Assembly (NCBI GenBank): GCA_942490705.1
Contig: CALNXY010000002.1
Coordinates: 103,980-167,979 of the forward strand
Direction: 5' to 3'
Length of the DNA stretch: 64,000 nt
Source of the DNA: an uncultured Caldilineaceae bacterium
GTDB lineage: Bacteria > Chloroflexota > Anaerolineae > Caldilineales > Caldilineaceae
The notes beneath the pieces were generated by a model, which was not told the DNA's origin, made no database searches, and was given only the letters and a program-made list of their open reading frames with translations. Each line of letters begins with the position of its first letter. Position 1 is the stretch's first letter. The translations under genes were made by a program, and so were the position numbers. Shown here piece by piece: positions 4,441 through 32,127 of this stretch.

Positions 4441-5220
4441 ATGGAATCACTACTTCAAGAACTGGTTACCATGTCCCATACGCTGGGCGATCCGGCCAAG
4501 GAACAGGTGATTTTGGGCGAGGGGAATACTTCCGCCCGGATTGACAACGAAGCTTTCTACGTCAAGGCGAGCGGCTATAGTTTGCCCGTGATTGGGGAAG
4601 AAGGCTTTGTGCGCGTCAATTTTCAGGCCGCGCTCGACCTGATGGAGCAGGAAGGGTTGAGTGATATGGAAGTGAAAGAAGCATTGCTGGCGGCGACGGT
4701 CGACAACCCCAAGCAGCTCTGGCCGTCAGTCGAGACCACTTTCCATGCGCTCTGCCTGACGCTCGGCGAGGCTGCCTTTGTCGGTCACACGCACCCGATC
4801 GACGTCAACGGGCTGCTCTGCTCCGTCAATGCAGAGGAAGCCTTCGCCATGCCCCTCTTTCCTGACCAGATTGTGGTCTGCGGCCCCGCTCCTGCCTTTG
4901 TGCCCTATGTCGATCCCGGCATCACCCTCGCCAACGCAATTCGCGAGGCCATGATGCGCTTTGGCGATACCTATAACATGCCGCCCAAGGTGATTGTGCT
5001 CCAGAATCATGGCATGATCGCGCTGGGCAAGTCAGCACAAGAGGTTGCCAGCATCACGGCTATGTTTACCAAGACCGCGCGTACACTACTTGGCGCGTAT
5101 GCGGCCGGCGGTCCAAATTTCATGACGCAGGAGAATGTAGACCGCATCTTCTCGCGGCCGGACGAGCACTATCGACAGCGGGTGCTGGGTCTGACGGTTG
5201 ACTCACCCGGTGATGCCTGA
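4441..5220 (+). CDS. Class II aldolase/adducin family protein, rhamnulose-1-phosphate aldolase-like (RhaE-type)
   Basis: The ORF 4351..5220 was trimmed to the ATG at 4441 (MESLLQ), which follows an AAGGA-like RBS. GEGNTSAR...VKASG and the GHTHP metal-binding motif are typical of class II aldolases and of the aldolase half of RhaEW. Confidence 0.7.
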   Translation: MESLLQELVTMSHTLGDPAKEQVILGEGNTSARIDNEAFYVKASGYSLPVIGEEGFVRVNFQAALDLMEQEGLSDMEVKEALLAATVDNPKQLWPSVETTFHALCLTLGEAAFVGHTHPIDVNGLLCSVNAEEAFAMPLFPDQIVVCGPAPAFVPYVDPGITLANAIREAMMRFGDTYNMPPKVIVLQNHGMIALGKSAQEVASITAMFTKTARTLLGAYAAGGPNFMTQENVDRIFSRPDEHYRQRVLGLTVDSPGDA

Positions 5221-5298
5221 TTTGCACTGTTCCTGCAGCCAATTCTTCTCGAAACACGACCGAATTCTGCGACCAAATCTCGATTAAAGGAGCATCTA

Positions 5299-6540
5299 AT
5301 GAATCACAAAGCAGCTTACGAAATCCTAGCGGAAGCGCTTGAAATGCAAGGCATCGACGTTGAGTCGGTCAAGGCCGCATTGAAAGCCCAGCATATTGAA
5401 ACGCCTTCCTGGGGCTACGCCAATTCGGGCACGCGCTTTAAGGCCTTTGCCTGGCCCGGCGCAGCCACGACCACGCGTGAGAAGATCGACGACGCCGCCA
5501 TGGTCCATAAAATGACCGGCATTGCGCCCAGCGTGGCCGTGCACATTCCCTGGGACAAGCCGGAGGATGGCGACTACGACGCCTTCAGCCAATACGCCCA
5601 AGAGCAGGGCGTGGCGATTGGCGCAGTCAACCCCAATGTCTTTCAGGATGACGAATACCGCCTCGGCTCGCTGGGCAGTCCGGACCCTGGCGTGCAGGAG
5701 CAGGCGCTCGATCACATTCTCGAATGCTGCATGATCATGGAGAAGCTGCACAGCGACGCCCTGAGCCTCTGGTTCGCCGACGGCACCAACTATGCCGGTC
5801 AGGACTCACTGCGCGGGCGCAAGCGTCGCTTCGAACGTCATCTCAAAACCGTCTATGGGCATCTGCCCCCCGACAGCCGCATGCTCATCGAGTACAAGTT
5901 TTTTGAACCGGCTTTCTACAGCACCGATTTGCCCGACTGGGGCACTGCCTATGCCTGGGCGCTCAAGTGCGGGCCCCAGGCTCAGGTGCTGGTTGACTTG
6001 GGGCATCACGCCCAGGGCGTCAACATCGAACAGATCGTCGCCTTCCTATTGGATGAAGGCCGGCTGGGCGGCTTCCACTTCAACAATCGCAAATATGCCG
6101 ATGATGACCTGATCGTGGGCAGCGTCAATCCCTATGAACTCTACCTGATTTATGCGGAGTTGGCGGGTGCTGAACTTGGCGATGATGAGCCGGCCAAGAC
6201 TACGGCTCAGAATGTGGCCTACATGCTCGACCAGTGCCACAACATCGAGGGCAAGCTGGCGCCCATCATCTATTCGGTGATCAACTGCCAGGAAGCGTAC
6301 GCCAAGGCGCTCTGCCTGCCCCGTGGGCAACTTCAGGCTGCCCAAGAGGGTGGCGAGGTGCTGCTGGCCCATGAGATCATGACCGACGCCTTCCGCACCG
6401 ATGTGCGACCGCTGCTGATGCAGGTACGCGAAGAGTTGGGCGCGCCCACCGATCCGCTTGCCGCCTATCGCAGCAGCGGGTATGAGGAGAAGATTCTCAA
6501 AGAGCGTGGGGTGAAGGACGCGAGCGGCGGCTTCCAGTAG
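5299..6540 (+). CDS. rhaI: L-rhamnose isomerase, RhaI type (xylose-isomerase-like TIM barrel)
   Basis: 413-aa ORF with AAAGGAG upstream. The N-terminus ...[18 protein letters not shown]... and overall length match the non-enterobacterial L-rhamnose isomerase family as I remember it. Confidence 0.75.
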
Positions 6541-6558
6541 CCACCAGCATAAGATGGG

Positions 6559-6607
6559 GTGCATGCGAGTCCGATGATGATCCGCCTGCCAGTGGGCTCG
6601 CATGCAC
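6559..6607. terminator. Perfect 11-bp inverted repeat between convergent genes (candidate bidirectional terminator or protein-binding site)
   Basis: GTGCATGCGAG (6559..6569) pairs with CTCGCATGCAC (6597..6607) across a 27-nt loop. There is no flanking U-tract. Confidence 0.35.
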
Positions 6608-6612
6608 TACGA

Positions 6613-6648
6613 TTTCGGAGAAAACCATGATTTCGGAGAAAATCATGA
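6613..6648. repeat. Tandem 18-bp direct repeat x2
   Basis: TTTCGGAGAAAACCATGA / TTTCGGAGAAAATCATGA, 17 of 18 identical, in the rhaI/DSD1 convergent spacer. Confidence 0.7.
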
Positions 6649-6747
6649 CCTCTCCTGGCCATGAAGCCTTTCGGATGATGACGCCAGCGTAGCCCCGTGT
6701 GCAGCACGTTCCGGGCGCTCAGTTTTTGCGCAGCGCTTGTAAGCCGG

Positions 6748-7836
6748 CTAGCGAATCTTACCGCGTGCCAGGATTGGCCAAACTGCCTCGACCACGTCAT
6801 TGCGCATGGCGTATAGATTGTCGTGCAGAACGACCGTAGTGTCTCCGTAACCGGGAACGAAATCAAAACGGTCGCCCACCTCGATCGAATCGTTCTCTTC
6901 TGTCAATGTGATGATGCCGTGTTCGGCTGACAAGACCATGTCATCTACATTCGGAATGCCGATGGGCGCCGGCGTGTTGATCCAACGCGGCAACGTCTTA
7001 AACCCGGCATCAACGATGATGCGGGTGGGTGCTGGGCAGCTGGTCACTGCGCTATGGACAAAAAGGGCCTGACGAGTTGCAACCTTCCAACCGCGATAGG
7101 TCATATCATTGAAGACTGCAGCCCCGGCCTCGATTTCAGTTATCCCGGGTTCTCGCGCCGTCATGACAAATGTTCCGCTACCGCCACAGCTGAGGATGTC
7201 AATCTCTATCCCTGCCTGCCGGCACAAATCGGCGCTCTCACGCAGTTGCCCAATCGCTTCGCTGATTGCCTGCCGCTTGGCAGACGGATCTTCGATGCCT
7301 AGCGTATGCCCTTCCCAGGTCATGAGGCCGCGCAGCTGTAGGCCAGGATAAAGGGCAATCGCTTCTGCCAGGGCAAGGGTCGCCGCCCCGGGCTGCACAC
7401 CCGCTCGGTCCATGCCCGTATTGACCTCGATTACCACTCCAATCAGAACATTGTGGGCCAAGGCGCTTGCGTTCAATCCGGCTAACGTGGCCGTGCTGTC
7501 AATGGCCACCTTTACATCGGTCGTGCGACAGAGGCTTGCCAGGCGAGCATACTTACGCTCCCCCACGATCTGATTGGCGATCAGCATGTCGCGTACCCCG
7601 GCAGCGGCCATCACCTCGGCCTCTCCCAGCTTGGCGCAGGTCAGCCCTATGGCGCCGGCGCGAAGGAGCATGTGGGCAATGGCTGGAACCTTGATCCCTT
7701 TAATATGCGGTCGCCAGTTGACGCCATTTTCGCGAAAATAGGCGGCGAGCTGGGCGATATTCTCCTCCAGCGCATCCAGATCCACCCACAAGAACGGCGT
7801 GTCAACCTCTGACTTATTCAGACCAACTTCGCTCAC
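6748..7836 (-). CDS. DSD1-family PLP enzyme (D-serine dehydratase-like / D-threonine aldolase-like, alanine-racemase N-terminal fold)
   Basis: 362-aa ORF. The WRPHIKGIK segment carries the candidate PLP lysine. The C-terminal ...GDRFDFVPGYGDTTV... resembles the D-serine dehydratase-like domain. Confidence 0.7.
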   Translation of the reverse strand: MSEVGLNKSEVDTPFLWVDLDALEENIAQLAAYFRENGVNWRPHIKGIKVPAIAHMLLRAGAIGLTCAKLGEAEVMAAAGVRDMLIANQIVGERKYARLASLCRTTDVKVAIDSTATLAGLNASALAHNVLIGVVIEVNTGMDRAGVQPGAATLALAEAIALYPGLQLRGLMTWEGHTLGIEDPSAKRQAISEAIGQLRESADLCRQAGIEIDILSCGGSGTFVMTAREPGITEIEAGAAVFNDMTYRGWKVATRQALFVHSAVTSCPAPTRIIVDAGFKTLPRWINTPAPIGIPNVDDMVLSAEHGIITLTEENDSIEVGDRFDFVPGYGDTTVVLHDNLYAMRNDVVEAVWPILARGKIR

Positions 7837-18755: not shown

Positions 18756-20147
18756 ATGATGAAGATTCGCGCACCAATTGTTGGACTATTTGTGCTGATG
18801 CTGTTCCTGCTTGCGGGCTGCACTGCGCCGGCGGCGGCCCCTGCTCCCGCGGCCGACGCTGATGCGGAAGTCAGTGAGGAAATGATGGATGAAGAGGTCA
18901 CGCTCGTCTACTGGGCCGATCCGCGCTTCCAGTTTGTCCAGGGCCTGGAAGACGAAACCCAAGAAGTTGGTGACTATGAGCAGATTCTGGCCGAGCGCTT
19001 CATGGAGATGCATCCCAACGTCACGATTGAGGTTGAGACGCTGGCTTGGGAAGAGCTGTCCACCAAGGTCGCGGCTGCCATCGCTGCCGGCGCAGCCCCG
19101 GATGTGCTTAAGGATTACCTGGGTCGTACCTCTGCTTACGCCAATCAAGGCTTGCTGGAGCCGTTGCAGGACGCAATCCCTGCAGAAGAGTATGAAGATT
19201 ACCTGCCGAGCCTGGTTGACCTCTATACCATCAACGATGAGTTACACGGTCTGCCCCTCTTCTTCTGGGTAACGCACATGTATGGCAATCAGGCCCCCTT
19301 TATGGAAGCCGGCGCCGAAGCGCTCCTGCCCGATAGCGAAACAGGCGCCTGGACTTTCGAACAGTTCGAAGAGGCGATGGCGGCAATGGCCGTTGCCGAC
19401 GAACGCTGGCCGGTGGGTCTCCAGGTCGGGAGTGAGCAGGGTGACTACAATGTGCTTGGTTTCTTCTGGGGTATGGGGGCAGAACTCTATGAAGACGGCG
19501 ACTACACCCGTAGCGCACTCAACAGCCCGGAAGGCGTCGCTGCGCTAACGAAGCTAGTCGAATGGTACGATGCTGGATATATCATTCCTGGCGCCACGAC
19601 CATGATTGGCGAGGATGTCAATAATGCGATGTACCTTGGACAGTCCGTCATCGCGGGCGGAGGCCTGAGTTCGCTGCCCGTTGCCGAAGCCGCCCAACAG
19701 GAAGGCCGCGTCACCGTCGATTGGGATCCGTTTATTTCGCTTTATCCTTCTGCTGAGGGCGTTTCGTCGGGCGGCATGGCGGCAGGTCCAACGGGCGCAG
19801 TCGTCTTCAAGCAGGATGATCCGGTCAAGCGTGAGTGGGCCATCGAATTCGCCCGCTTCCTGGCGTCTCCGGAACTGCAGGTCGAATATGCCGTCAATTC
19901 CAACCAGTTTCCCTCGCGCCTTTCCGTGCCGAACCCGTTCGAAGGCAACCCTGATTTCACCCGTGTCAATGCCTGGATTCAAGAGCATGGTGTTGAAGAC
20001 ATGGGTCTGAGTTCGCCAACCTATGCTGAGGTACGCGTGCTATTGCAGCCGGAACTGCAAGCCGCGTTGCTCGGCGCCAAAACGCCTGAAGAGGCGTTGG
20101 CCGACTACGAAGAAAAAGCGAATGCCGTCTTGGCAAGAGATCAGTAG
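18756..20147 (+). CDS. ABC transporter extracellular solute-binding lipoprotein (family 1, CUT1 sugar type)
   Basis: 463 aa. AAGGAG RBS. Signal peptide with lipobox LLAGC followed by an Ala/Pro/Glu-rich linker. It lies directly upstream of two MalF/MalG-type permease genes. The start could be 18759. Confidence 0.85.
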   Translation: MMKIRAPIVGLFVLMLFLLAGCTAPAAAPAPAADADAEVSEEMMDEEVTLVYWADPRFQFVQGLEDETQEVGDYEQILAERFMEMHPNVTIEVETLAWEELSTKVAAAIAAGAAPDVLKDYLGRTSAYANQGLLEPLQDAIPAEEYEDYLPSLVDLYTINDELHGLPLFFWVTHMYGNQAPFMEAGAEALLPDSETGAWTFEQFEEAMAAMAVADERWPVGLQVGSEQGDYNVLGFFWGMGAELYEDGDYTRSALNSPEGVAALTKLVEWYDAGYIIPGATTMIGEDVNNAMYLGQSVIAGGGLSSLPVAEAAQQEGRVTVDWDPFISLYPSAEGVSSGGMAAGPTGAVVFKQDDPVKREWAIEFARFLASPELQVEYAVNSNQFPSRLSVPNPFEGNPDFTRVNAWIQEHGVEDMGLSSPTYAEVRVLLQPELQAALLGAKTPEEALADYEEKANAVLARDQ

Positions 20148-20165
20148 TTACGATCCACGCATAGA

Positions 20166-20209
20166 CTGTGGGAGGCGGTCGAAGCGGCATGCATTGCCGC
20201 CTCCCACAG
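20166..20209 (+). promoter_or_regulatory. Intercistronic stem-loop after the solute-binding-protein gene
   Basis: A perfect 13-bp stem, CTGTGGGAGGCGG / CCGCCTCCCACAG, with an 18-nt loop, 19 nt after the stop at 20147. No U-tract follows. Confidence 0.6.
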
Positions 20210-20310
20210 ATTGCTGAAACATTCGCCCGCGTGAATAGCGGACGATCCCTCCGTACTGGCAATTTGCCTGAGTTCATGGTTGACGAACGAATCAGGAGTC
20301 TTCCCTCGCC

Positions 20311-21192
20311 ATGACAACGCTCATTAATGAAATCTGGAAAGAGCGCTGGGCCTATCTTTTTTTGCTGCCGGCGCTGATTCCATTCTTTGCGTTTATACTC
20401 TGGCCTCTGATGGCGGGGCTGCGGCTGAGCCTCTATGACGCGCAGCTGGTGGACCGGACCTTTATCGGTTTTGGCAACTTCGTCGAGCTTGCCAACGATG
20501 AAGCGTTTCGAATGGCAGTTAGAAATACCTTCTTCTTCGTGCTCGGCGTCGTGCCGGTGACCGTAACGCTCTCGCTCTTCCTGGCGCTTGTGATTTTCCC
20601 CATGCGTTCGGGCGCGCAAGGCTTTTTTCGCATGGCCTTCTATCTGCCTGTGGTTGCGTCGGGCGTGGTGTTGACGATGGTCTGGCTCTACATCTTCAAT
20701 CCGACTTACGGCTTGCTCAATTATCTATTGAGTCTGATCGGCATCGAACGCATCGCATGGCTCGGACTGATTGAGACCGCGTTGCCGTCCCTGGCCATTG
20801 TGGTGATCAGCTGGACGATTGGGGTTCCGGTCATTCTTTTTATTGCCGGTCTCGCCGGCATCCCTGAATCGCTCTACGACGCCGCCCAGATCGATGGCGC
20901 CAATGCCCTGCAGGAGCTCTGGTATGTGACCTTGCCGCTCTTGCGCCCGACAGTTCTTTTCATTTTGGTGACCCAAACGATTGGCGTCTTTCAAGTCTTC
21001 GTTGTTGTACTCCTAATGACCAGGGGGGGACCGGCAAATTCCACCCAGACCATCGTCTATCGAATCTATGAAACGGCGTTCACGTTCTTTCGCTTTGGCT
21101 ATGCATCTGCCATGGGTGTTGTATTGTTACTTATCGTGAGCATTGTTGCTGCGGCGCAGTTCAAGCTACTTGGTGAAGAGGTTCAATACTAA
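20311..21192 (+). CDS. Carbohydrate ABC transporter permease (MalF-like)
   Basis: 293 aa with six predicted TM segments and an EAA-type loop (DAAQIDGANALQELWYVTLPLLRP). Confidence 0.9.
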   Translation: MTTLINEIWKERWAYLFLLPALIPFFAFILWPLMAGLRLSLYDAQLVDRTFIGFGNFVELANDEAFRMAVRNTFFFVLGVVPVTVTLSLFLALVIFPMRSGAQGFFRMAFYLPVVASGVVLTMVWLYIFNPTYGLLNYLLSLIGIERIAWLGLIETALPSLAIVVISWTIGVPVILFIAGLAGIPESLYDAAQIDGANALQELWYVTLPLLRPTVLFILVTQTIGVFQVFVVVLLMTRGGPANSTQTIVYRIYETAFTFFRFGYASAMGVVLLLIVSIVAAAQFKLLGEEVQY

Positions 21193-21193
21193 G

Positions 21194-22102
21194 ATGGCAG
21201 AAAATTCCACGAGTGGAGCGATACCGAGCGTACCGGAAGCCGCATATCCGGATTCCAAACGAAGTCTGTGGTCATGGGCTGGCCGAGGCTTCTGGCTCCT
21301 GACCGTCCTGGCGACCATTTTGCTTGCACTCCTCTCACTGCTCCCACTCTACTGGATGATCATCGGGTCCTTCAAAATTCAGACAAACGCAATGGCCGTG
21401 CCGCCAGAATTCTGGCCGTCAAACCCGACGCTTGAGAACTGGGAACGGCTGCTTTTCGGCAGCAGCCCCACGTGGCGCTGGTTCGCAAATAGCTTCGTCG
21501 TTGCCTCACTGTCAGCTATGTTTGCCGTCTTGACCAGTGCCCTGGCCGGGTATTCGTTTGGCAAGAAGGTATTTCCTGGGCGCAATTTTCTCTTTTGGCT
21601 GATCATTATCACGATGATGCTCCCCAAACAGATCTCGCTCATTCCGCTCTTTATTCTGATGCGCAGACTTGATTGGTTTAACACTTATCAGGGGCTGATT
21701 GTGCCATGGGTTGCCTATCCTTTTGGGATCTTTCTCTTCAAGCAATATATGCAGTCCATCCCCAGTGAGTTGCTCGATGCTGCGCGCATAGATGGCGCCG
21801 GCGAGTTGCGCACCTTCTTCGGCATTGTGCTTCCCCTCTCTAAACCGGCGGTTGGCGCACTGGCGATCTTTGCCTTTGTCGCGGCCTGGAATGATTTTCT
21901 TTGGCAGTTGATTCTGGTCACAAAAGAGACCATGTTTACGCTGCCGGTAGGCGTCTCCAAATTGGTTAGCTCGCTGACCAGCTTCAATCTGGGCCTGGCT
22001 ATGGCCGGCGCAACGTTCGCTTTTGTCCCGATGCTCATCGTCTTTCTGCTCTTCCAAGATTACTTTGTCAAAGGCATTACGCTCGGCGGCGTTAAGGGGT
22101 AG
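21194..22102 (+). CDS. Carbohydrate ABC transporter permease (MalG-like)
   Basis: The ORF was trimmed to the ATG at 21194, immediately after the previous stop. EAA loop: DAARIDGAGELRTFFGIVLPLSKP. Confidence 0.9.
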   Translation: MAENSTSGAIPSVPEAAYPDSKRSLWSWAGRGFWLLTVLATILLALLSLLPLYWMIIGSFKIQTNAMAVPPEFWPSNPTLENWERLLFGSSPTWRWFANSFVVASLSAMFAVLTSALAGYSFGKKVFPGRNFLFWLIIITMMLPKQISLIPLFILMRRLDWFNTYQGLIVPWVAYPFGIFLFKQYMQSIPSELLDAARIDGAGELRTFFGIVLPLSKPAVGALAIFAFVAAWNDFLWQLILVTKETMFTLPVGVSKLVSSLTSFNLGLAMAGATFAFVPMLIVFLLFQDYFVKGITLGGVKG

Positions 22103-22108
22103 AGACCG

Positions 22109-23059
22109 ATGATCTATCGTACACTGGGACGAACCGGGCTGCGCGTCTCTGCGCTGGGACTGGGCACCGTCGAACTCGGTTTGGACTATGGGATCGATGC
22201 CCCGGGCGACTTCGGTCGCCCGACGGAATCGGACGCCATTCGGCTTGTCCACGCTGCGCTGGATGCCGGAATTAGCTTTGTCGATACCGCGCGCGCCTAT
22301 GGCGAGAGTGAACGCATACTCGGCCTTGCGCTTGCCAGGCGCCGTGCGGATGTAGTGATTGCCACCAAGGTTGATCCGCGTCGCGCCGATGGCAGCGTGC
22401 TGGAAGGCAATGCATTGCGGCGCTTCATGCAAGAGTCGCTGCAGACCAGCCTGCGGCTTCTCGGCACGGACTATGTCGACGTTTGGATGTTGCACAGCAT
22501 GGACGCTGCGCTCTTGCGCCAGAACGAGATTGTCGCTGAGGTTTTCGACGATGCGCGTCGGCGCGGTCAAATTGGGTGGACCGGCGCGTCTTTCTATGGC
22601 GTGGAGCTGCCCGAAGCAGCACTCAAGCATGATCTCTTCGACGTCATGCAGGTCACTTACTCCGTGCTTGATCAACGACTGAATGAACGGGTATTTCCCC
22701 TGGCCGCCGAGCAGAACGTCGGGATCGTCGTGCGTTCGATCTTGCTCAAAGGCGCCCTGACCGAGCGCGCCGAGCACCTCCCCCCCCGCCTAGAATTGTT
22801 ACGGACACGTTCACGGGAGTTCCGTGCATTATTGACGGCATCCAACGACGAGATGACTCCGGCCCAGGGGGCCATTCTCTTTGGTCTGGCCAATCCGCAT
22901 ATTGATACAGTTCTTGTCGGTGTTCGCACCGAAGCGGAGCTTGCAGAGGATGTTTCCGCCATGGAGATGCAGCTCTCCCCGCAGGAACTAACTGAGCTTC
23001 AAACGCTTGCGGTCGATGATGAATCCTTATTGGATCCCAGCACTTGGGGGCTTCCCTAA
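22109..23059 (+). CDS. Aldo/keto reductase
   Basis: 316 aa. LGRTGLRVSALGLGT, DTARAYG and DVWMLH motifs. Confidence 0.85.
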   Translation: MIYRTLGRTGLRVSALGLGTVELGLDYGIDAPGDFGRPTESDAIRLVHAALDAGISFVDTARAYGESERILGLALARRRADVVIATKVDPRRADGSVLEGNALRRFMQESLQTSLRLLGTDYVDVWMLHSMDAALLRQNEIVAEVFDDARRRGQIGWTGASFYGVELPEAALKHDLFDVMQVTYSVLDQRLNERVFPLAAEQNVGIVVRSILLKGALTERAEHLPPRLELLRTRSREFRALLTASNDEMTPAQGAILFGLANPHIDTVLVGVRTEAELAEDVSAMEMQLSPQELTELQTLAVDDESLLDPSTWGLP

Positions 23060-23200
23060 CCTGTTGCGCCCCCTGGGCAGGACTGGGCTATTGCCGACTG
23101 ATCGTTCGGCATTGGCAACTTCTTCAAGCTTGGCGCCATGCTGCCTGTTCTTGCTCTCGCTTCCACTATTGCCTGTTCTTGTTCCGGTTTAGGAGAATCT

Positions 23201-24268
23201 GTGGCTAACTATCGTAGCCTTGAGTGGCGGGGCGACTCGGTCCGAATGTTGGATCAGCGCCGGCTGCCTCACGAAACCGTCTATATCGACTTAGTCGACT
23301 ACACCGCCATTGCCGACGCGATCCGCACGATGGTCATTCGTGGCGCGCCGGCCATTGGTGCGGCCGCTGCCTATGCGATGGCGCTGACTGCAGCGCGCAG
23401 CGAAGCGCCTGACATGGTGACATTGCGCGCAGAGTTGACGGAGGCCGCCACAGTGCTACGCGCTGCACGGCCCACGGCAGTGAACCTTTTCTGGGCGCTC
23501 GACCGCATGCAGACTGCCATTGCTGATGAATCGCTTGCGACGCCTGACGATCTACGTGCCGCGGCGCTGCGTGCCGCCGAGGCAATCGCTGTCGACGATG
23601 TTTGGACCAATCGTCAAATCGGTCTCAACGCCATGGAACTCGTCCCCGATCCGGCGACGATCATCCATCACTGCAATACCGGCAGTCTTGCCACTGTTGA
23701 CTATGGCACGGCATTGGGCGTCATTCGTACAGCCCATGAGCAGGGCAAGGATATCCATGCCTACCTCGATGAGACCCGCCCCCGCCTGCAGGGCGCCTCG
23801 CTCTCGGCCTGGGAACTGCTTCAACTTGGCGTGCCTCATACAGTGATTGTCGACGGCGCATCGGGTCACATTATGCGGACAGTGGGGGTAGATCTTTGCG
23901 TCGTGGGATGCGACCGCGTCGCGGCCAATGGCGATACGGCCAACAAGATCGGCACCTATAACCTGGCGCTGGTCGCCAGTGCCCATGGCGTGCCTTTCTA
24001 TGTGGCTGCGCCAACTTCGACCATCGATCTCGCTACGCCGAGTGGCGATGACATCGAAATCGAGGAGCGTCCTGCGGCTGAAGTCAGCCATATTGGGACT
24101 ACACAGGTGACGCCGGCCGGGGCCAACGTAGCCAATCCGGCGTTTGACGTCACGCCGGCCCGGTACATTACCGCCATCATCACCGAAATGGGGATTGCCT
24201 ATCCGCCCTATGCAGAGAGCCTGGCGGAGATGGTCGCCAGCGCACACAGACGCCACGCCGAGGCGTAG
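23201..24268 (+). CDS. mtnA: S-methyl-5-thioribose-1-phosphate isomerase
   Basis: The ORF was trimmed to the GTG at 23201, which lies 5 nt after [33 protein letters not shown] and [18 protein letters not shown] are hallmark MtnA/eIF-2B-like motifs. Confidence 0.85.
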
Positions 24269-24340: not shown

Positions 24341-26491
24341 CTATACAAAAATCATAACGGTGGCAATCAGCATCGCTGTCAAGACCACTGGCCAGAAGAG
24401 CGCCTTGGCGATCAAATTGTTGCCGAAGCGGACGATGGCGTAGTTCGGGCGATTGACCACAAAGAAGGTGTTAATCGCCACAAAGATGACCATCAGATAG
24501 AGCAGGAGATAGAAGTATTCGAGGTAGGTGAGTCCAATCGCAGCGGCGCTCTCCCTCAGGGCCGTATGCATGACCGCAATGACGAAGAAGAGCGCGGCGG
24601 TGTAGCTGAGCGCGGTCACGATCTCATCCGATTCGTCCGGCTTGCGGTCGCTGAGCACAAAGGCAAAGATCATCATGGCCGCGACCAGGGCCGGCAGCAA
24701 GAAGGCAATGAAGGGACCCAGGAAGCGCCGTCGCGAGTCGATGCCATAGGTCAACTCGGGCAGATCGCGTGTGGGGCGGTTGAGTATGCCGAGGTTGGTG
24801 CCGTAATCGACTTCGATGAAGCGGAAAGCTGAACCCGTAATCAGCCAGTCGCGGATTGAGACGGTGCTGTCCAAACCCGGCAGGAAGGTGGGCGTCGTGA
24901 CCTCGTAGGAGCCGAAATCCGGCGTCAGGATAATGTTACGCTGCATGTCCAAGGGCATGAGGCGCAGGCTGATTTCGTGACTATCGAAGGGATACTTGGT
25001 TGGATCGAAGCTTTGCTTCAGGGCTGCATTGATGCTCCACACAATCAACGTTTCGGTTTTGCGTTCTTCACGCAGCACTTCTTCGACCTGCATTGGTTCA
25101 TCGATCAACTGAGGTAGCGTGAAGCCGCCCGTGAGTTCCTCTCCTTCGACCTGGGGCACACGCTGCCACACAAACCCATTGATGACGACCGACGTCGCAT
25201 CAGGATAGCGTACAGACTGGAGGAGGACCCCGGTTGGAATCTGAATTGGCTCCTCGATGCCACGCGCCTCAAATTCACTATTCAAGTTGTCAAGGTAGCC
25301 GGCCAAACTTGCCTGATTTGAAATCGCGATGCCGTCACGCGCTACGTAGGTGCGCGCCAGGACGATAATGGCAACGATCATGATGGCTGCGATGATGGAG
25401 TAGGCGATCGAGGTGATCCATAGGCTGCGGGTGGTTGCGTTGGTCGCCCCGGCAAAGATTGCTACGAGGAGCGCCACCAAGAGGCCGCCTGTCAAGAGGA
25501 TGATCGTCAACCAGCGTAAGTGAACGCTGGCATCCAAGGCATACTCGCTTTGACTCAGTTCGACCGCCAGCGCCCAGCCCGGCGCAGCGACCGGCGTAAA
25601 GAAATCCCAGACCTCGACTTCCCCTTGGGGCTCGACGCGCTCCAGCGTGACGGTCTCACCCTGTAGCGAACGCTCCGCAGCGTCAACCAGCAGGGGATCG
25701 TCCACAAACTGTGGACTGTCGTAAAACGTTGTCGTTGCCACAAATTCGGGCACCGGGTGGGCAAGCCAGGTACCGGATTGGTTCATGAGCAAACCAAAGC
25801 CGGTTTGGCCCAGTTCCAGCCCGTCGACAAGTGCATCTACACCCTCAAGCGAGAAGTCGAGCGCCACAACGCCCGCAACATCATCGCTGTCCGGGGCAAA
25901 AAAGGGCGCCCCGTACTCGATCAGAACCTGATTGGCGCCAGCGGCCAAGAAGGGCTCTTGCCACATAGGACCATTCTCGATGGGATCAAGGTACCAGCCG
26001 GTTTGGGGCGCCTCCGGATCATCGCCCGGTGGTTGCGTATAGTCGTAGCGAGACTGCCGAATGTCCGCCACGATTTCGCCATCTTCATCACGGTAGAGAT
26101 AGATCACATGCAGGCGGTTGTCGGATGGAAACGCGTCAGGTGCAAAGGCCGCTGAGATGCCGTAGAGGTCTGGTCGTTCTTCGATCAGCGTGCGCAAGCG
26201 GCTTTCAATTGCCGCGTCGTCGAACGGCAGGGCGCCGCTCGATAAGTCATCGGCCAACGCTTCGGTGATCTCCATCGCTGAGCCGAAGGTCACATCAAGC
26301 TCTGCGGCCGCTCTGGATACCTCAGCTTGTGCATCGTTGAACGCTGCTACCGTCGACGCCCGAAGCGTATTGATGAATTGGATGATGAAGAAAATGAGCA
26401 GGGCGGCCAAAAGCGCGCTCAACCCAATGAGAACAAATTGCGCAATTCGTCGCGCGCGGTTTGTCTTGGTCGTTTCTGTATCGAATGGCAT
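24341..26491 (-). CDS. Double-Cache sensor domain fused to a pentameric ligand-gated ion channel (pLGIC/Cys-loop-like) homolog
   Basis: 716 aa. Order: TM; about 280 aa periplasmic Cache-like region (...YGISAAF..., WYLDP, ...VVALDFSL...); a TM hairpin; a beta-rich ectodomain with KYPFDSHEISLRL (equivalent to the Cys-loop FPFDxQ motif, at 24983..24994); then RRRF-preM1 and four TM helices (M1 with conserved Pro, M2-M4). Confidence 0.7.
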   Translation of the reverse strand: MPFDTETTKTNRARRIAQFVLIGLSALLAALLIFFIIQFINTLRASTVAAFNDAQAEVSRAAAELDVTFGSAMEITEALADDLSSGALPFDDAAIESRLRTLIEERPDLYGISAAFAPDAFPSDNRLHVIYLYRDEDGEIVADIRQSRYDYTQPPGDDPEAPQTGWYLDPIENGPMWQEPFLAAGANQVLIEYGAPFFAPDSDDVAGVVALDFSLEGVDALVDGLELGQTGFGLLMNQSGTWLAHPVPEFVATTTFYDSPQFVDDPLLVDAAERSLQGETVTLERVEPQGEVEVWDFFTPVAAPGWALAVELSQSEYALDASVHLRWLTIILLTGGLLVALLVAIFAGATNATTRSLWITSIAYSIIAAIMIVAIIVLARTYVARDGIAISNQASLAGYLDNLNSEFEARGIEEPIQIPTGVLLQSVRYPDATSVVINGFVWQRVPQVEGEELTGGFTLPQLIDEPMQVEEVLREERKTETLIVWSINAALKQSFDPTKYPFDSHEISLRLMPLDMQRNIILTPDFGSYEVTTPTFLPGLDSTVSIRDWLITGSAFRFIEVDYGTNLGILNRPTRDLPELTYGIDSRRRFLGPFIAFLLPALVAAMMIFAFVLSDRKPDESDEIVTALSYTAALFFVIAVMHTALRESAAAIGLTYLEYFYLLLYLMVIFVAINTFFVVNRPNYAIVRFGNNLIAKALFWPVVLTAMLIATVMIFV

Positions 26492-26670
26492 GCAGGCCGC
26501 TTTCTGACTGAAGGCGTAGGTCAGTAACTGCTTTACACCTTCGAGTTATTGGTTGATCGAATCGTACGGTTCTATACTGTCTCACGTCTCAAAAACGAGT
26601 CATGATGCTGCTGACAGGCTTGTTGCCGGTTAGCCCACGTGAGAGAAACGCTTTGGCGGGAGATCAGTTC

Positions 26671-27786
26671 ATGAAAAGTGACGCAGCCTCTCAGGCAAAA
26701 TTGACCGGCGATGACGGCCTTGACGTCGATGTCGTCGTGATTGGCGCAGGACCGATCGGCCTGGAAGTGGCCGTCGGTTTGAAGGAGGCGGGCATAAACT
26801 ACCGCCATTTTGACGCCAATCAGATCGGCCACACCATGACGTGGTGGCCGCGCAACACTCACTTCTTTAGTACCACAGAACGTCTGGCGATTGCCGGCGT
26901 GCCGATCCAAAATAACCATCAGCAGCGTATCACGGGCGAAGACTATCTCGCCTATCTGCGCAGCGTTGTGGAGCAATTTGATCTGCGCATCGAGAGCTAC
27001 GAGCCGGTCACGAGGCTCGTGCGGACAGCTACGGGCTTTGTGCTGGAGTCAGAATCGCAACATGGTCGCCGCGTTACTTCGTGTCGTCAAGTCGTCATGG
27101 CGATTGGTGACATGCACTGGGCCAATCAGCTTCGCATTCCCGGTGAAGACTTGCCCCATGTCTCCCACTACTTCCGCGATCCGCATGACTATTTTCGTAA
27201 GCGGCTGCTCGTCGTCGGCGGCAAGAATTCTGCCGTGGAGGCTGCACTGCGCTGTTGGCGTGCCGGTAGCCGGGTGACGATGAGCTACCGGCGTGAGCAG
27301 TTCGATCCACAGCGGGTCAAGCACTGGCTGCTGCCCGACCTCGAAGCTCAGTTCGAAGCCGGTACGATTGGCTTCCTGCCCAGTACTGTACCGGTTGAAA
27401 TTACGTCCGACGCTGTCTGGCTTCAGCCTCTTGATGACGCAGGCGAGCCGAGTGGCGAAATCCTGCGCCATGCAACCGACTTTGTCCTGCTGGCAACCGG
27501 CTTTCGCGGTGACCAGAGTCTTTTGGCCATGGCGGGCGTGACGCTGGAGGGCGAGAACCGCGTACCGGTCTTTGACCCTGCGACCATGGAAACGAATGTG
27601 CCCGGTCTCTATCTGGCCGGCACGGTCGCTGCCGGCGTCCAGCAGCGCTACACGCTCTTCATCGAGAATTGCCACGAACACGCCGGCAAGATTGTGCAGG
27701 CGATTAGCGGCACGTGGCCATCACGTATTGGTACGGTTGCGGCACGCACCTACGCGCTGCCTTTTGAACAGATCGCTGCGAACTGA
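26671..27786 (+). CDS. FAD/NAD(P)-binding pyridine nucleotide-disulfide oxidoreductase, YpdA-like
   Basis: [13 protein letters not shown] (GxGxxG) lies near the N-terminus if the ATG at 26671 is used; the longest ORF starts at 26602. A second dinucleotide motif is [12 protein letters not shown]. Resembles thioredoxin-reductase-like YpdA proteins. Confidence 0.65.
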
Positions 27787-30358: not shown

Positions 30359-30528
30359 CAGTTCTCTCCAGACTGCTTGCTTTGTCAATGAATTGCAGCG
30401 ATGCATCATACCTGAATTAGCATGACGGGTCAACGTATCCCCGCGCTCGGCAGGAATTCACAAGTTGGGCAGGGGGGCGCGGGTGCGGCCGTTTGCTGCC
30501 TGCGTTTTGCTGCGGGTACAATGGCGCC

Positions 30529-32127
30529 ATGGCTTGGTTCAAGCGCCGCAGGCGCGCACCATCGGAAACTGAAGAATCACCCTTTGATGGGCAGGCAGCG
30601 CAGCCGCGCCCGCCTGTCGAGCCGGCCACGACCTCGGGCAAGCAGGTAGAGTGGCAATTTGGCCATGACGATTGGCCCGAATGGATGGCCGAATCGTACG
30701 CAGCCGCGCCGCTGGCTGGTGAACGCTACTTCTATCCCATGAACGAGCCGGCCGCCGCAGCGCCTGGCGGTTCTATCGCCAATCCCGAAGATGCTGATCT
30801 AATTGAGGGCAACGCGGCCGGGATGGTCGTCTGGTCCGCGGCTGCCGCGACCTCCCACTCGGAATTGAGACGACTGACGGACGCCTTCCGCGGGCCGGGC
30901 GCTATCCAACGAGTAGAGGCCGTCCGTCGCGCGCTCGACCGGGCGCTGGAGCAGTGGTGGGCCGAAAGCACATTGCCCGCCAGCGGATTGCTGCGTGACG
31001 GTCTGCTTGTGCTGGAGGCTGGGCATGATCTGGACGAGAGCCAGCGATCGCTTTTGCTGCGCACGGCCACTGCCTATGATCGGGGCATTCTGACCGCATT
31101 GCATCATCAGACTGATCCGGAGCGAACGGCCTATATTCTTGCGGAGGCCATCACTTCGCCGACAATCGATCTGCCGCTTGAGCGAATTCAGACGTTGGCC
31201 TATGAGGATCCCCTCGGCGAGGCCTGGTTGCCCTATCTGCAACATGAATTAGTGGCCTATGCCGAAATTACGCCGGCCTATGACGAGTTGGCCATGGCCG
31301 CTTTGCGCCTTGATGCCAAAAAACCAGCGGTCCTGCCTCGGGCACGGCCAAGTGCTTCCCCGGCGCCCGAATCTATCCAGCCGCCGCCGGTGGCGCGCCG
31401 GTGGGTACGCCTGCTTCTGGCGCTGCTGGCATTCGTCTTGGTTGTGACGCTGCTGCTTGGTGATCAATTCCGTGGGCGTATGCGTGACGTGATCGAAGTA
31501 GGCGGCGGCACCTATTCGTTGCGCAACGTTGACGGAACCGAGCGCGTCGTGGCGCTGGATCCTTACGTGATTGACCGTTTCGAGGTTGGGGTGGCCGACT
31601 ATCGACGCTGTTATGCGGCCGGCGCCTGCGTCTGGCCGCGCGAGACCGCCAGTGTAACCCGACCTGACTACCTGACCAACCGCACGTACGACCGCTACCC
31701 CATGATTAACGTGGATTGGGCCGCGGCGACTGCATATTGCGAGTGGGCCGGGATGCGTCTGCCGAGCGAAGATGAATGGCAGGCGGCTGCATCGTACGCG
31801 CCGGCCACCGCACGCGCCTATCGTTACCCGTGGGGGGATACCTTTCAGCCGCAGGTGACCAATAGCCTGGAGGGTGGCCAGGGCGACACCACGGTGGTCG
31901 GGTCCTACCAGCCTAGCGGCAATAGCCCCATGGGCATGGCCGATGCAGCCGGAAATGTGGCTGAGTGGACGTCGACCACCGCCACCGGCGATCCGAGCAT
32001 TTATCGCACCAAAGGCGGCTCCTTCGCTGACGGTGCCGACTATCTGCAACCCCAGGTTGTTCAAAGCCTGCCCGCAGCCAATCAACATGACTGGTTGGGC
32101 TTTCGCTGCGCCGCATCCCCGCAATAG
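30529..32127 (+). CDS. Membrane-anchored formylglycine-generating-enzyme (SUMF1/FGE-sulfatase) domain protein
   Basis: Start taken at MAWFKRRRR (30529); the longest ORF starts at 30493. About 280 aa N-terminal region, one TM (WVRLLLALLAFVLVVTLLLG), then the FGE domain (FEVGVADYRRC..., MINVDWAAATAYCEWAGMRLPSEDEW, NVAEWT, RGGSF, GFRCA). Confidence 0.75.
   Translation: MAWFKRRRRAPSETEESPFDGQAAQPRPPVEPATTSGKQVEWQFGHDDWPEWMAESYAAAPLAGERYFYPMNEPAAAAPGGSIANPEDADLIEGNAAGMVVWSAAAATSHSELRRLTDAFRGPGAIQRVEAVRRALDRALEQWWAESTLPASGLLRDGLLVLEAGHDLDESQRSLLLRTATAYDRGILTALHHQTDPERTAYILAEAITSPTIDLPLERIQTLAYEDPLGEAWLPYLQHELVAYAEITPAYDELAMAALRLDAKKPAVLPRARPSASPAPESIQPPPVARRWVRLLLALLAFVLVVTLLLGDQFRGRMRDVIEVGGGTYSLRNVDGTERVVALDPYVIDRFEVGVADYRRCYAAGACVWPRETASVTRPDYLTNRTYDRYPMINVDWAAATAYCEWAGMRLPSEDEWQAAASYAPATARAYRYPWGDTFQPQVTNSLEGGQGDTTVVGSYQPSGNSPMGMADAAGNVAEWTSTTATGDPSIYRTKGGSFADGADYLQPQVVQSLPAANQHDWLGFRCAASPQ

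Follow-up and report, generated by a model that had tools for sequence, protein, structure and literature searches.

What does a solitary reading frame of an uncultured Caldilineaceae bacterium encode, when its first half resembles a chemoreceptor sensor and its second half an ion channel, and how might such a protein work? The question arises from a 64,000-nucleotide stretch of contig CALNXY010000002.1 (GenBank assembly GCA_942490705.1, positions 103,980 to 167,979; hereafter the window), in which a first-pass annotation, made from the letters alone, had described a Cache sensor fused in one polypeptide to a homolog of the ligand-gated ion channels of pentameric type (pLGICs). Nicotinic, GABA-A, glycine and 5-HT3 signalling all rely on receptors of this class, for which the prokaryotic representatives GLIC, ELIC and DeCLIC have served as main structural models. 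Combining profile searches, structure prediction and family-wide conservation, we found that the fusion is indeed carried by a single open reading frame (ORF) of 716 amino acids (aa), which starts with ATG and encodes a double Cache (dCache) domain followed by a module of pLGIC fold. We lean towards the view that its product is a subunit of a predicted, presumably homopentameric, ligand-gated pLGIC, belonging to a divergent "MCP-N + Cache" clade and gated by its Cache domain along the lines proposed below.

The hallmarks on which the channel assignment had first been based are all present, namely the segment KYPFDSHEISLRLMP at residues 499–513, a pre-M1 S-R-R-R-F at 586–590, the M1 prolines P593 and P600, and three further hydrophobic helices. 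Within the first of these, the Pro-loop, which in pLGICs lies between beta6 and beta7 and reads aromatic-P-aromatic-D, aligns to Y-P-F-D of GLIC and F-P-F-D of ELIC, and across 107 relatives its proline is invariant (P501, 107/107, 100%) and its aspartate nearly so (D503, 101/107, 94%). Conservation is also high at R588 (102/107, 95%), at P600 (103/107, 96%) and, within M2, at L634 (91 relatives, 85%), H642 (99) and R646 (106), the last two lying at the outer end of the helix. A single-sequence phmmer search of the PDB reached only E ~1, to nAChR alpha7, with the register correct from pre-M1 to M3, and a hidden Markov model (HMM) built from 16 relatives retrieved pLGICs in 29 of 29 matches, aligned at the PFDRQ Pro-loop, only at E ~0.03. 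Profile–profile alignment with hhalign to GLIC, the sequence of which was checked against PDB entry 2xq3, gave 86% probability and E=4.7e-6 for the 16-relative profile, over beta1, the Pro-loop and pre-M1/M1, and 97.6% probability and E=1.4e-11 over 280 columns for a 100-sequence profile; beta1, the Pro-loop and the pre-M1 segment were in register.

Structure prediction pointed the same way. An AlphaFold model of the module (333 residues, 384–716) with a predicted local distance difference test score (pLDDT) of 78 and a predicted TM-score (pTM) of 0.69 produced 900 Foldseek matches in the PDB at E<=1e-3. The best 50 of these 900 are all pLGICs, with GLIC, ELIC, sTeLIC, GABA-A, nAChR and GlyR among them, aligned over ~330 of the 333 residues at E-values down to 1.8e-12, and a model of the full-length protein reached a target-normalised TM-score (TMt) of 0.70–0.74 against GLIC. 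The N-terminal helix, ten-strand beta sandwich, M1–M4 bundle and extracellular C-terminus of the pLGIC fold were all recovered by AlphaFold and Foldseek. We conclude that residues ~384–716 are a genuine, though very divergent, pLGIC module.

The identity of the N-terminal half as a double Cache domain is secure. As already suspected in the first-pass annotation, which had named dCache_1 as the model to be searched, the region has the expected fold, and it was another Pfam model that recognised it best: within residues 95–310, MCP-like_PDC_1 (PF22673) scored over its gathering cut-off (E=3.4e-10), and dCache_1 (PF02743) stayed under its own cut-off of 45 bits (37.5 bits, E=2.5e-9). In the PDB, phmmer retrieved dCache sensors of histidine kinases and chemoreceptors at E ~1e-9 (3lic, 9hvj, 9heh, 3lib, PctA), and Foldseek superposed the full-length model on 3LIB, 9HEH, 3LI8 and 3LIC with TM-scores of 0.73–0.79 (normalised to the target structures), a root-mean-square deviation of ~3.3 Å and ~285 columns; across 3lib, 9heh, 3li8, PctD and McpX, TMt ranged from 0.64 to 0.79. 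The region displays the dCache_1 architecture, with tandem PDC/PAS-like modules and a long N-terminal stalk helix (7–85), in a periplasmic position flanked by transmembrane (TM) helices.

Which ligand this sensor might bind was approached through its pocket. Free amino acids are recognised in the dCache_1AA group by the AA_motif, made of Y121, R126 and W128 (YxxxxRxWY) together with Y144 and D173 in PctA numbering (PMC8915833). This motif is absent from the Cache domain studied here, which reads E-A-P-Q-T-G-W-Y, lacking the Arg at W-2 and the Tyr at W-7, and an amino-acid sensor was rejected on this ground. In an alignment with 3LIB, the candidate pocket positions (W166-Y167, F181, Y193 and D212) correspond to aromatic and Asp residues, and the nearest Cache structures found by Foldseek are 3LIB, PctD, PacA, McpX and TlpQ. 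The source of the AM_motif of dCache_1AM (R103, D133, W155, F188/Y189, Y206, M215, S217 and D235 in PctD) describes these five as amine sensors (PMC10589655). The identity of these neighbours, the retained aromatic and Asp positions and the missing AA_motif Arg together give a weak hint, by analogy, that the ligand may be amine-like or cationic and the pocket similar to that of amine sensors.

The two halves are joined through the membrane. Hydropathy delimited seven TM segments (~18–40, 326–348, 356–380, 590–613, 622–645, 653–678 and 693–716), and the full-length AlphaFold model (pLDDT 93.3, pTM 0.86) placed helices at 7–85 (TM1 and stalk), 321–346, 354–381, 591–613, 622–649, 656–680 and 693–715. 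Both agree with the N-terminal TM helix, the periplasmic region of ~280 aa and the two-helix hairpin anticipated from the sequence, an arrangement that puts the Cache domain and the channel ectodomain on the outer side. The resulting topology is self-consistent, running from an internal N-terminus, the basic character of which fits the positive-inside rule, to an external Cache domain, a cytoplasmic turn of 7 residues, an external ectodomain, M1–M4 and an external C-terminus. The ectodomain (416–590) holds the beta1 P-T-G (419–421), G439 followed by W442-Q443, the Pro-loop and the pre-M1 segment. On TM3, per-column conservation in the 107 relatives is concentrated on one face (W358, S361, S365, I372, I375 and position 376). 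The residue map and its coordinates are collected in Table 1.

Table 1. Residue map of the dCache–pLGIC fusion protein, with positions in the window
Feature	Position	Strand	Basis
Whole gene, 716-aa dCache-pLGIC fusion protein	24341..26491	(-)	ORF list; stop codon 24341-24343
Residues 1-17, short N-terminal tail in the cytoplasm with net basic charge (4 K/R, 2 D/E)	26441..26491	(-)	sequence and charge count
Residues 18-40, TM1, extended to ~85 by the long dCache stalk helix	26372..26440	(-)	hydropathy peak 3.03; model helix 7-85
Residues 41-320, periplasmic double Cache (dCache_1) sensor	25532..26371	(-)	Pfam, PDB sequence matches, Foldseek
Residues 321-346, TM2, outward-to-inward helix after Cache	25454..25531	(-)	hydropathy; model helix 321-346
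Residues 347-353, very short cytoplasmic TM2-TM3 hairpin turn	25433..25453	(-)	gap between model helices 321-346 and 354-381
Residues 354-381, TM3, one conserved helical face	25349..25432	(-)	per-column conservation, 107 family members
Residues 382-415, linker, short strand and ectodomain N-terminal alpha helix (393-409)	25247..25348	(-)	secondary structure, both models
Residues 416-590, pLGIC-type beta-sandwich ectodomain	24722..25246	(-)	hhalign vs GLIC, Foldseek, conservation
Residues 500-503, Y-P-F-D, Pro-loop (Cys-loop equivalent)	24983..24994	(-)	conservation; alignment to GLIC/ELIC
R588, conserved pre-M1 arginine	24728..24730	(-)	Arg in 102/107; alignment to GLIC pre-M1 LRISRQYF
Residues 591-613, M1, conserved P600	24653..24721	(-)	model helix; P600 in 103/107
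Residues 614-621, acidic cytoplasmic M1-M2 loop S-D-R-K-P-D-E-S, then D622-E623	24629..24652	(-)	sequence
Residues 622-649, M2, presumed pore-lining helix; L634 candidate 9' Leu	24545..24628	(-)	model helix; conservation; register ambiguous
Residues 656-680, M3, beginning with conserved Y-L-E-Y	24452..24526	(-)	model helix; Y656 and E658 nearly invariant
Residues 693-716, M4, periplasmic C-terminus, conserved W700-P701	24344..24415	(-)	model helix 693-715; P701 invariant

The protein belongs to a large family. A word-indexed homolog search, which yielded 31 relatives, had given the impression of a rare family; this was corrected by an exhaustive profile search, which recovered at least 2,092 clusters (50% identity, E<=1e-3), 1,155 of them at E<=1e-30. 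The top matches are mostly 690–740 aa long with the channel module at their C-terminus, dCache_1 was detected in 54 of the 65 members scanned, and typical members share about 25–35% identity with the Caldilineaceae protein. Ten uninterrupted orthologs of 716–746 aa come from metagenome-assembled genomes (MAGs) of Chloroflexota (Chloroflexia, Caldilineaceae, Promineifilaceae and Anaerolineaceae), and the family is also recorded, among other named sources, from Burkholderiales, Saprospiraceae, Vicinamibacterales and Thermomicrobiales. All names found at the source for family members read "hypothetical protein". A minority of members, ~440 aa long, lack the Cache domain and retain the module preceded by three N-terminal TM helices with short loops between them (L013, from a Thermomicrobiales MAG, and P0013–P0032); the constant feature of the clade is thus its layout of seven TM helices (3+4), and not the Cache domain.

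Other members depart from this plan by addition. In P0061 (1327 aa), P0065 (1501 aa) and P0087 (1566 aa), solute-binding domains (SBP_bac_5, or Bmp plus ABC_sub_bind) are fused right after M4, through a seamless junction devoid of signal peptide and of any extra TM helix. These three look like real dCache–pLGIC–solute-binding triple fusions, and such a position fits the extracellular C-terminus of pLGICs. P0063 (1282 aa) bears a long TPR array on the N-terminal side of the Cache–channel unit, and ~470 residues separate TM3 from M1 in P0107 (974 aa), implying a large insertion in the ectodomain.

This kind of fusion had been foreseen by comparative genomics, as the first-pass annotation noted. 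Tasneem et al. (2004) described prokaryotic pLGICs fused to MCP-N and Cache in Methanosarcina, Cytophaga and Microbulbifer (PMC549065), and the alignment in their Additional file 2 contains MA1624, Meth2754, Chut2789 and Mdeg1480. An HMM built from the relatives of our protein scored these four Cache-fused sequences at 344–379 bits; by comparison, GLIC reached 19.5 bits and Chut2434, another canonical bacterial pLGIC, 22 bits. Judged by these scores, the Caldilineaceae protein falls in the same clade as the "MCP-N + Cache" pLGICs of 2004.

How the Cache domain may act on the channel can be outlined as follows. A small molecule, in all likelihood something other than a free amino acid and probably with a cationic or amine-like character, would bind the membrane-distal module of the dCache domain and displace the stalk and TM2 helices, a movement that could be relayed by the tight TM2–TM3 hairpin to TM3, which would offer its conserved face for packing and leads directly into the ectodomain. 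This relay, direct contacts between the Cache domain and the ectodomain, or both, would then bias the ectodomain–pore interface (D503, R588, H642 and R646), opening the pore presumably lined by M2. What would result is an altered membrane potential or ion content, with no partner protein being signalled to, which fits a gene standing alone; as the protein has neither a cytoplasmic output domain nor a conserved partner gene, no output other than ion flux is evident. Three routes to the pore remain, namely the TM2–TM3 hairpin, Cache–ectodomain contacts, or a Cache domain that merely modulates an agonist site of the ectodomain. As to selectivity, the acidic M1–M2 loop (D619, E620, D622 and E623) suggests that the pore is cation-selective, and P-D-E-P-E-E in the M1–M2 region is conserved among the Chloroflexota orthologs; an E-[RK] rule for selectivity is cited by Tasneem et al. 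(PMC549065).

Several observations weigh against this Cache-gated channel. The pLGIC membership rests on remote-homology and fold methods: the search for Neur_chan_LBD (PF02931) and Neur_chan_memb (PF02932) advocated in the first-pass annotation failed, with no match at E<=10 in the full protein or in residues 384–716 and none at E<=0.1 in any of 65 sampled family members, and no NCBIfam model matched the protein. That annotation had further held that the lack of a significant pLGIC profile match would overturn its proposal; such a lack is real for the Pfam models, and it is overruled by the hhalign alignment and the fold, so that this yardstick proved too strict. Because the profile–profile and fold tests are positive, we read the Pfam miss as a gap in the sensitivity of the pLGIC models. 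Cache domains usually signal as dimers, a mismatch with five-fold symmetry. Over the family at large, the M1–M2 loop varies and lacks this acidic character, and the 9' position of M2 falls on L628 by the 2004 alignment versus L634, midway along M2 in the model, by the helix limits of AlphaFold, six residues apart, an ambiguity of register that makes both the pore lining and the selectivity filter uncertain. Covariation between TM3 and the pore helices, computed as mutual information with average product correction (MI-APC) on 154 full-length sequences (effective number, Neff, 135), contained no contact-level signal, the output being dominated by a clique of subfamily-specific columns. Finally, the ectodomain is better conserved (2.3 bits per column) than the Cache domain (1.5–1.6 bits), so that the former, and not the latter, could carry the primary agonist site.

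This last point leads to the strongest rival, which we hold to be possible but somewhat unlikely. It states that gating occurs at the canonical inter-subunit site of the protein's own ectodomain and that the dCache domain is an accessory, modulating kinetics or capturing and concentrating the ligand. The conservation of this most conserved soluble part extends to the beta9–beta10 (loop C) region with its motif N-T-x-F-G, but it may stem from folding, assembly or gating instead of a ligand site. Members naturally devoid of the Cache domain still have the ectodomain and the full set of seven TM helices, and the core therefore presumably works without Cache, yet the domain is maintained in most of the sampled family. 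Tasneem et al. proposed that the fused domains aid preliminary sensing, ligands then binding the ligand-binding domain (LBD; PMC549065), and the N-terminal domain (NTD) of DeCLIC influences gating kinetics only. Set against these arguments is the wiring of the Cache domain itself, held by two TM helices and no flexible linker, which is the arrangement found in receptors using Cache as their primary sensor.

A bolder form of the Cache-gated channel, which we advance tentatively and consider rather improbable, regards the three extra helices as an integral part of the TM domain of a large "7-TM pLGIC" clade in which the dCache domain gates the pore through the membrane. TM2, once displaced, would act via the hairpin on TM3, which would pack on the pore-domain helices and pull on the N-terminus of the ectodomain. 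If true, this would be a route to gating unknown for any characterised pLGIC, coupling a normally dimeric sensor to a five-fold channel, and the variants with solute-binding domains after M4 would be multi-input chemical integrators.

Far less probable in our view is a pLGIC-like module that does not conduct, acting as a scaffold or conformational transducer (a pseudo-channel), or one that senses ions or pH and not an organic ligand. Among known prokaryotic pLGICs, GLIC is indeed gated by protons and DeCLIC by Ca2+ depletion, the clade is too divergent for curated pLGIC HMMs, W-Q replaces the canonical W-x-D/P ectodomain motifs, and M2 is very hydrophobic (A-A-L-F-F-V-I-A), with the bulky, near-invariant F635 and F636. 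The strong conservation of the Pro-loop proline and aspartate, the pre-M1 arginine, the M1 proline and the histidine and arginine at the end of M2 is, however, not easily accounted for in a module that does not gate; under the register that the model favours, the pore would be lined by E/D, small or polar residues, L and V, much like an ordinary pLGIC pore; and a transducer would lack a cytoplasmic output domain, the intracellular loops being 7–12 residues long. That the fusion is an artefact, adjacent Cache-sensor and channel genes having been merged through a sequencing or assembly error, is contradicted by a single ORF that is conserved among relatives and has practically no chance of being right, for the related contig L015, where gene calling gives two ORFs (375 and 250 aa) in its place, has mtnA split too, whereas the ORF is uninterrupted in the ten independent MAGs noted above, hundreds of cluster representatives share its length and layout, and the isolate-genome proteins MA1624, Meth2754 and Chut2789 are 696–709 aa long with an LBD start at ~375.

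In L015 (positions 4683–6753, ENA contig_16675), which carries a 97%-identical relative, the split mtnA adjoins the channel gene; the assembly of this contig thus appears frameshift-prone, and its two-ORF call no real gene split. One of the ten MAG orthologs, of 716 aa in L001, is 96% identical to the protein. In the window, the gene stands between a convergent IF-2B/MtnA-family gene (23138–24268, +) and a divergent Pyr_redox_3 oxidoreductase (26602–27786, +). As the first-pass annotation had supposed, these neighbours give no clue: an all-versus-all BLAST of the ORFs of 12 loci revealed no conserved neighbour, the only synteny being among close relatives. A scan for promoters and terminators around the gene detected nothing exceeding shuffled expectation, and neither Rfam families nor tRNAs were found in the window. 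A role in anti-phage defence was considered and rejected, PADLOC giving no match. Upstream of the MtnA-family gene, the window also holds a sugar-type ATP-binding cassette (ABC) transporter operon followed by an aldo/keto reductase (18756–23059, +), with an SBP_bac_1/8 lipoprotein (18756–20147) and two ORFs (20311–22102) that look permease-like by reading of their sequence; no link between this operon and the channel gene is conserved in other genomes. Further along (30493–32127, +) lies the gene for a protein of 544 aa, the N-terminal half of which is rich in proline and alanine; a single central hydrophobic segment follows, and an FGE-sulfatase (formylglycine-generating-enzyme-like) domain (E=9.8e-33) occupies the C-terminal part.

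Our results expose a real blind spot in annotation. The clusters of this family, numbering at least 2,092, carry no channel annotation, in spite of the assignment of the clade's founding members to the superfamily in 2004, and a family HMM would allow thousands of proteins to be annotated as putative ligand-gated channels. By joining the commonest bacterial extracellular sensor to a channel output, these proteins provide a tractable system for studying how accessory sensors couple to pLGIC gating, as well as a good target for structural and functional work. They also bear on the role of electrical or ionic signalling in the non-motile, filamentous Chloroflexota. A specialist aware of the 2004 paper would not be surprised, and in the searchable literature we found no functional, structural or other experimental study of any member of the clade.

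Compared with characterised systems, the protein combines features that are elsewhere separate. It has in common with dCache_1 sensors (3LIB mmHK1S-Z3, 3LIC soHK1S-Z6, PctD, McpX and PctA) the TM1–dCache–TM2 cassette and the W-Y, aromatic and Asp pocket positions, and differs from them by the absence of the AA_motif (YxxxxRxWY) and by an output in which a TM hairpin, running on to an ion-channel module, takes the place of a HAMP, kinase or MCP module. With GLIC (Gloeobacter, proton-gated) and ELIC (Erwinia, amine-gated) it shares the fold across the ectodomain and M1–M4 (Foldseek E ~1e-11 to 1e-12), the Pro-loop Y/F-P-F-D, the pre-M1 Arg, the M1 Pro, a short M3–M4 loop and an extracellular C-terminus, at only 10–18% identity; these channels possess four TM helices behind a cleaved signal peptide and lack a sensor domain, whereas our protein has three more TM helices and a dCache domain. 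DeCLIC (Desulfofustis, Ca2+-sensitive), according to its literature the only NTD-bearing pLGIC with a structure, is likewise a prokaryotic pLGIC whose N-terminus bears an additional periplasmic domain, to which a modulating role in gating is ascribed. By contrast, the NTD of DeCLIC is made of two jelly-roll lobes placed directly on the ectodomain, with no intervening TM helix, whereas the dCache domain is bracketed by TM helices.

The nearest described counterparts are the proteins predicted two decades earlier, MA1624 (Methanosarcina acetivorans), Meth2754 (M. barkeri), Chut2789 (Cytophaga hutchinsonii) and Mdeg1480 (Microbulbifer degradans), which belong to the same family. These are 696–709 aa long with an LBD start at 375–377, versus 716 aa and ~384–416 here, and the motifs IPTG, G-Y-x-W-Q, LRQxFDYxxYPFD, PELYFN, H..LR, YLEYFY and LYWP are common to both sets. 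The N-terminal MCP-N and Cache region that characterises them, now called dCache_1, corresponds to the PF22673/PF02743 matches of our protein, which differs in coming from an uncultured Chloroflexota lineage. The available text of the 2004 study describes a signal peptide, extra domains and then the LBD, and that text mentions neither a TM2–TM3 hairpin nor a 7-TM layout (PMC549065). The Caldilineaceae protein is a new member of the clade predicted in 2004 and not a new kind of system; to that prediction, the present analysis adds a 3+4 TM layout that stays constant and in which one face of TM3 is conserved, a Cache domain without the amino-acid-binding motif and with a pocket that may resemble those of amine sensors, an acidic M1–M2 loop suggestive of cation selectivity, and relatives carrying solute-binding domains after M4.

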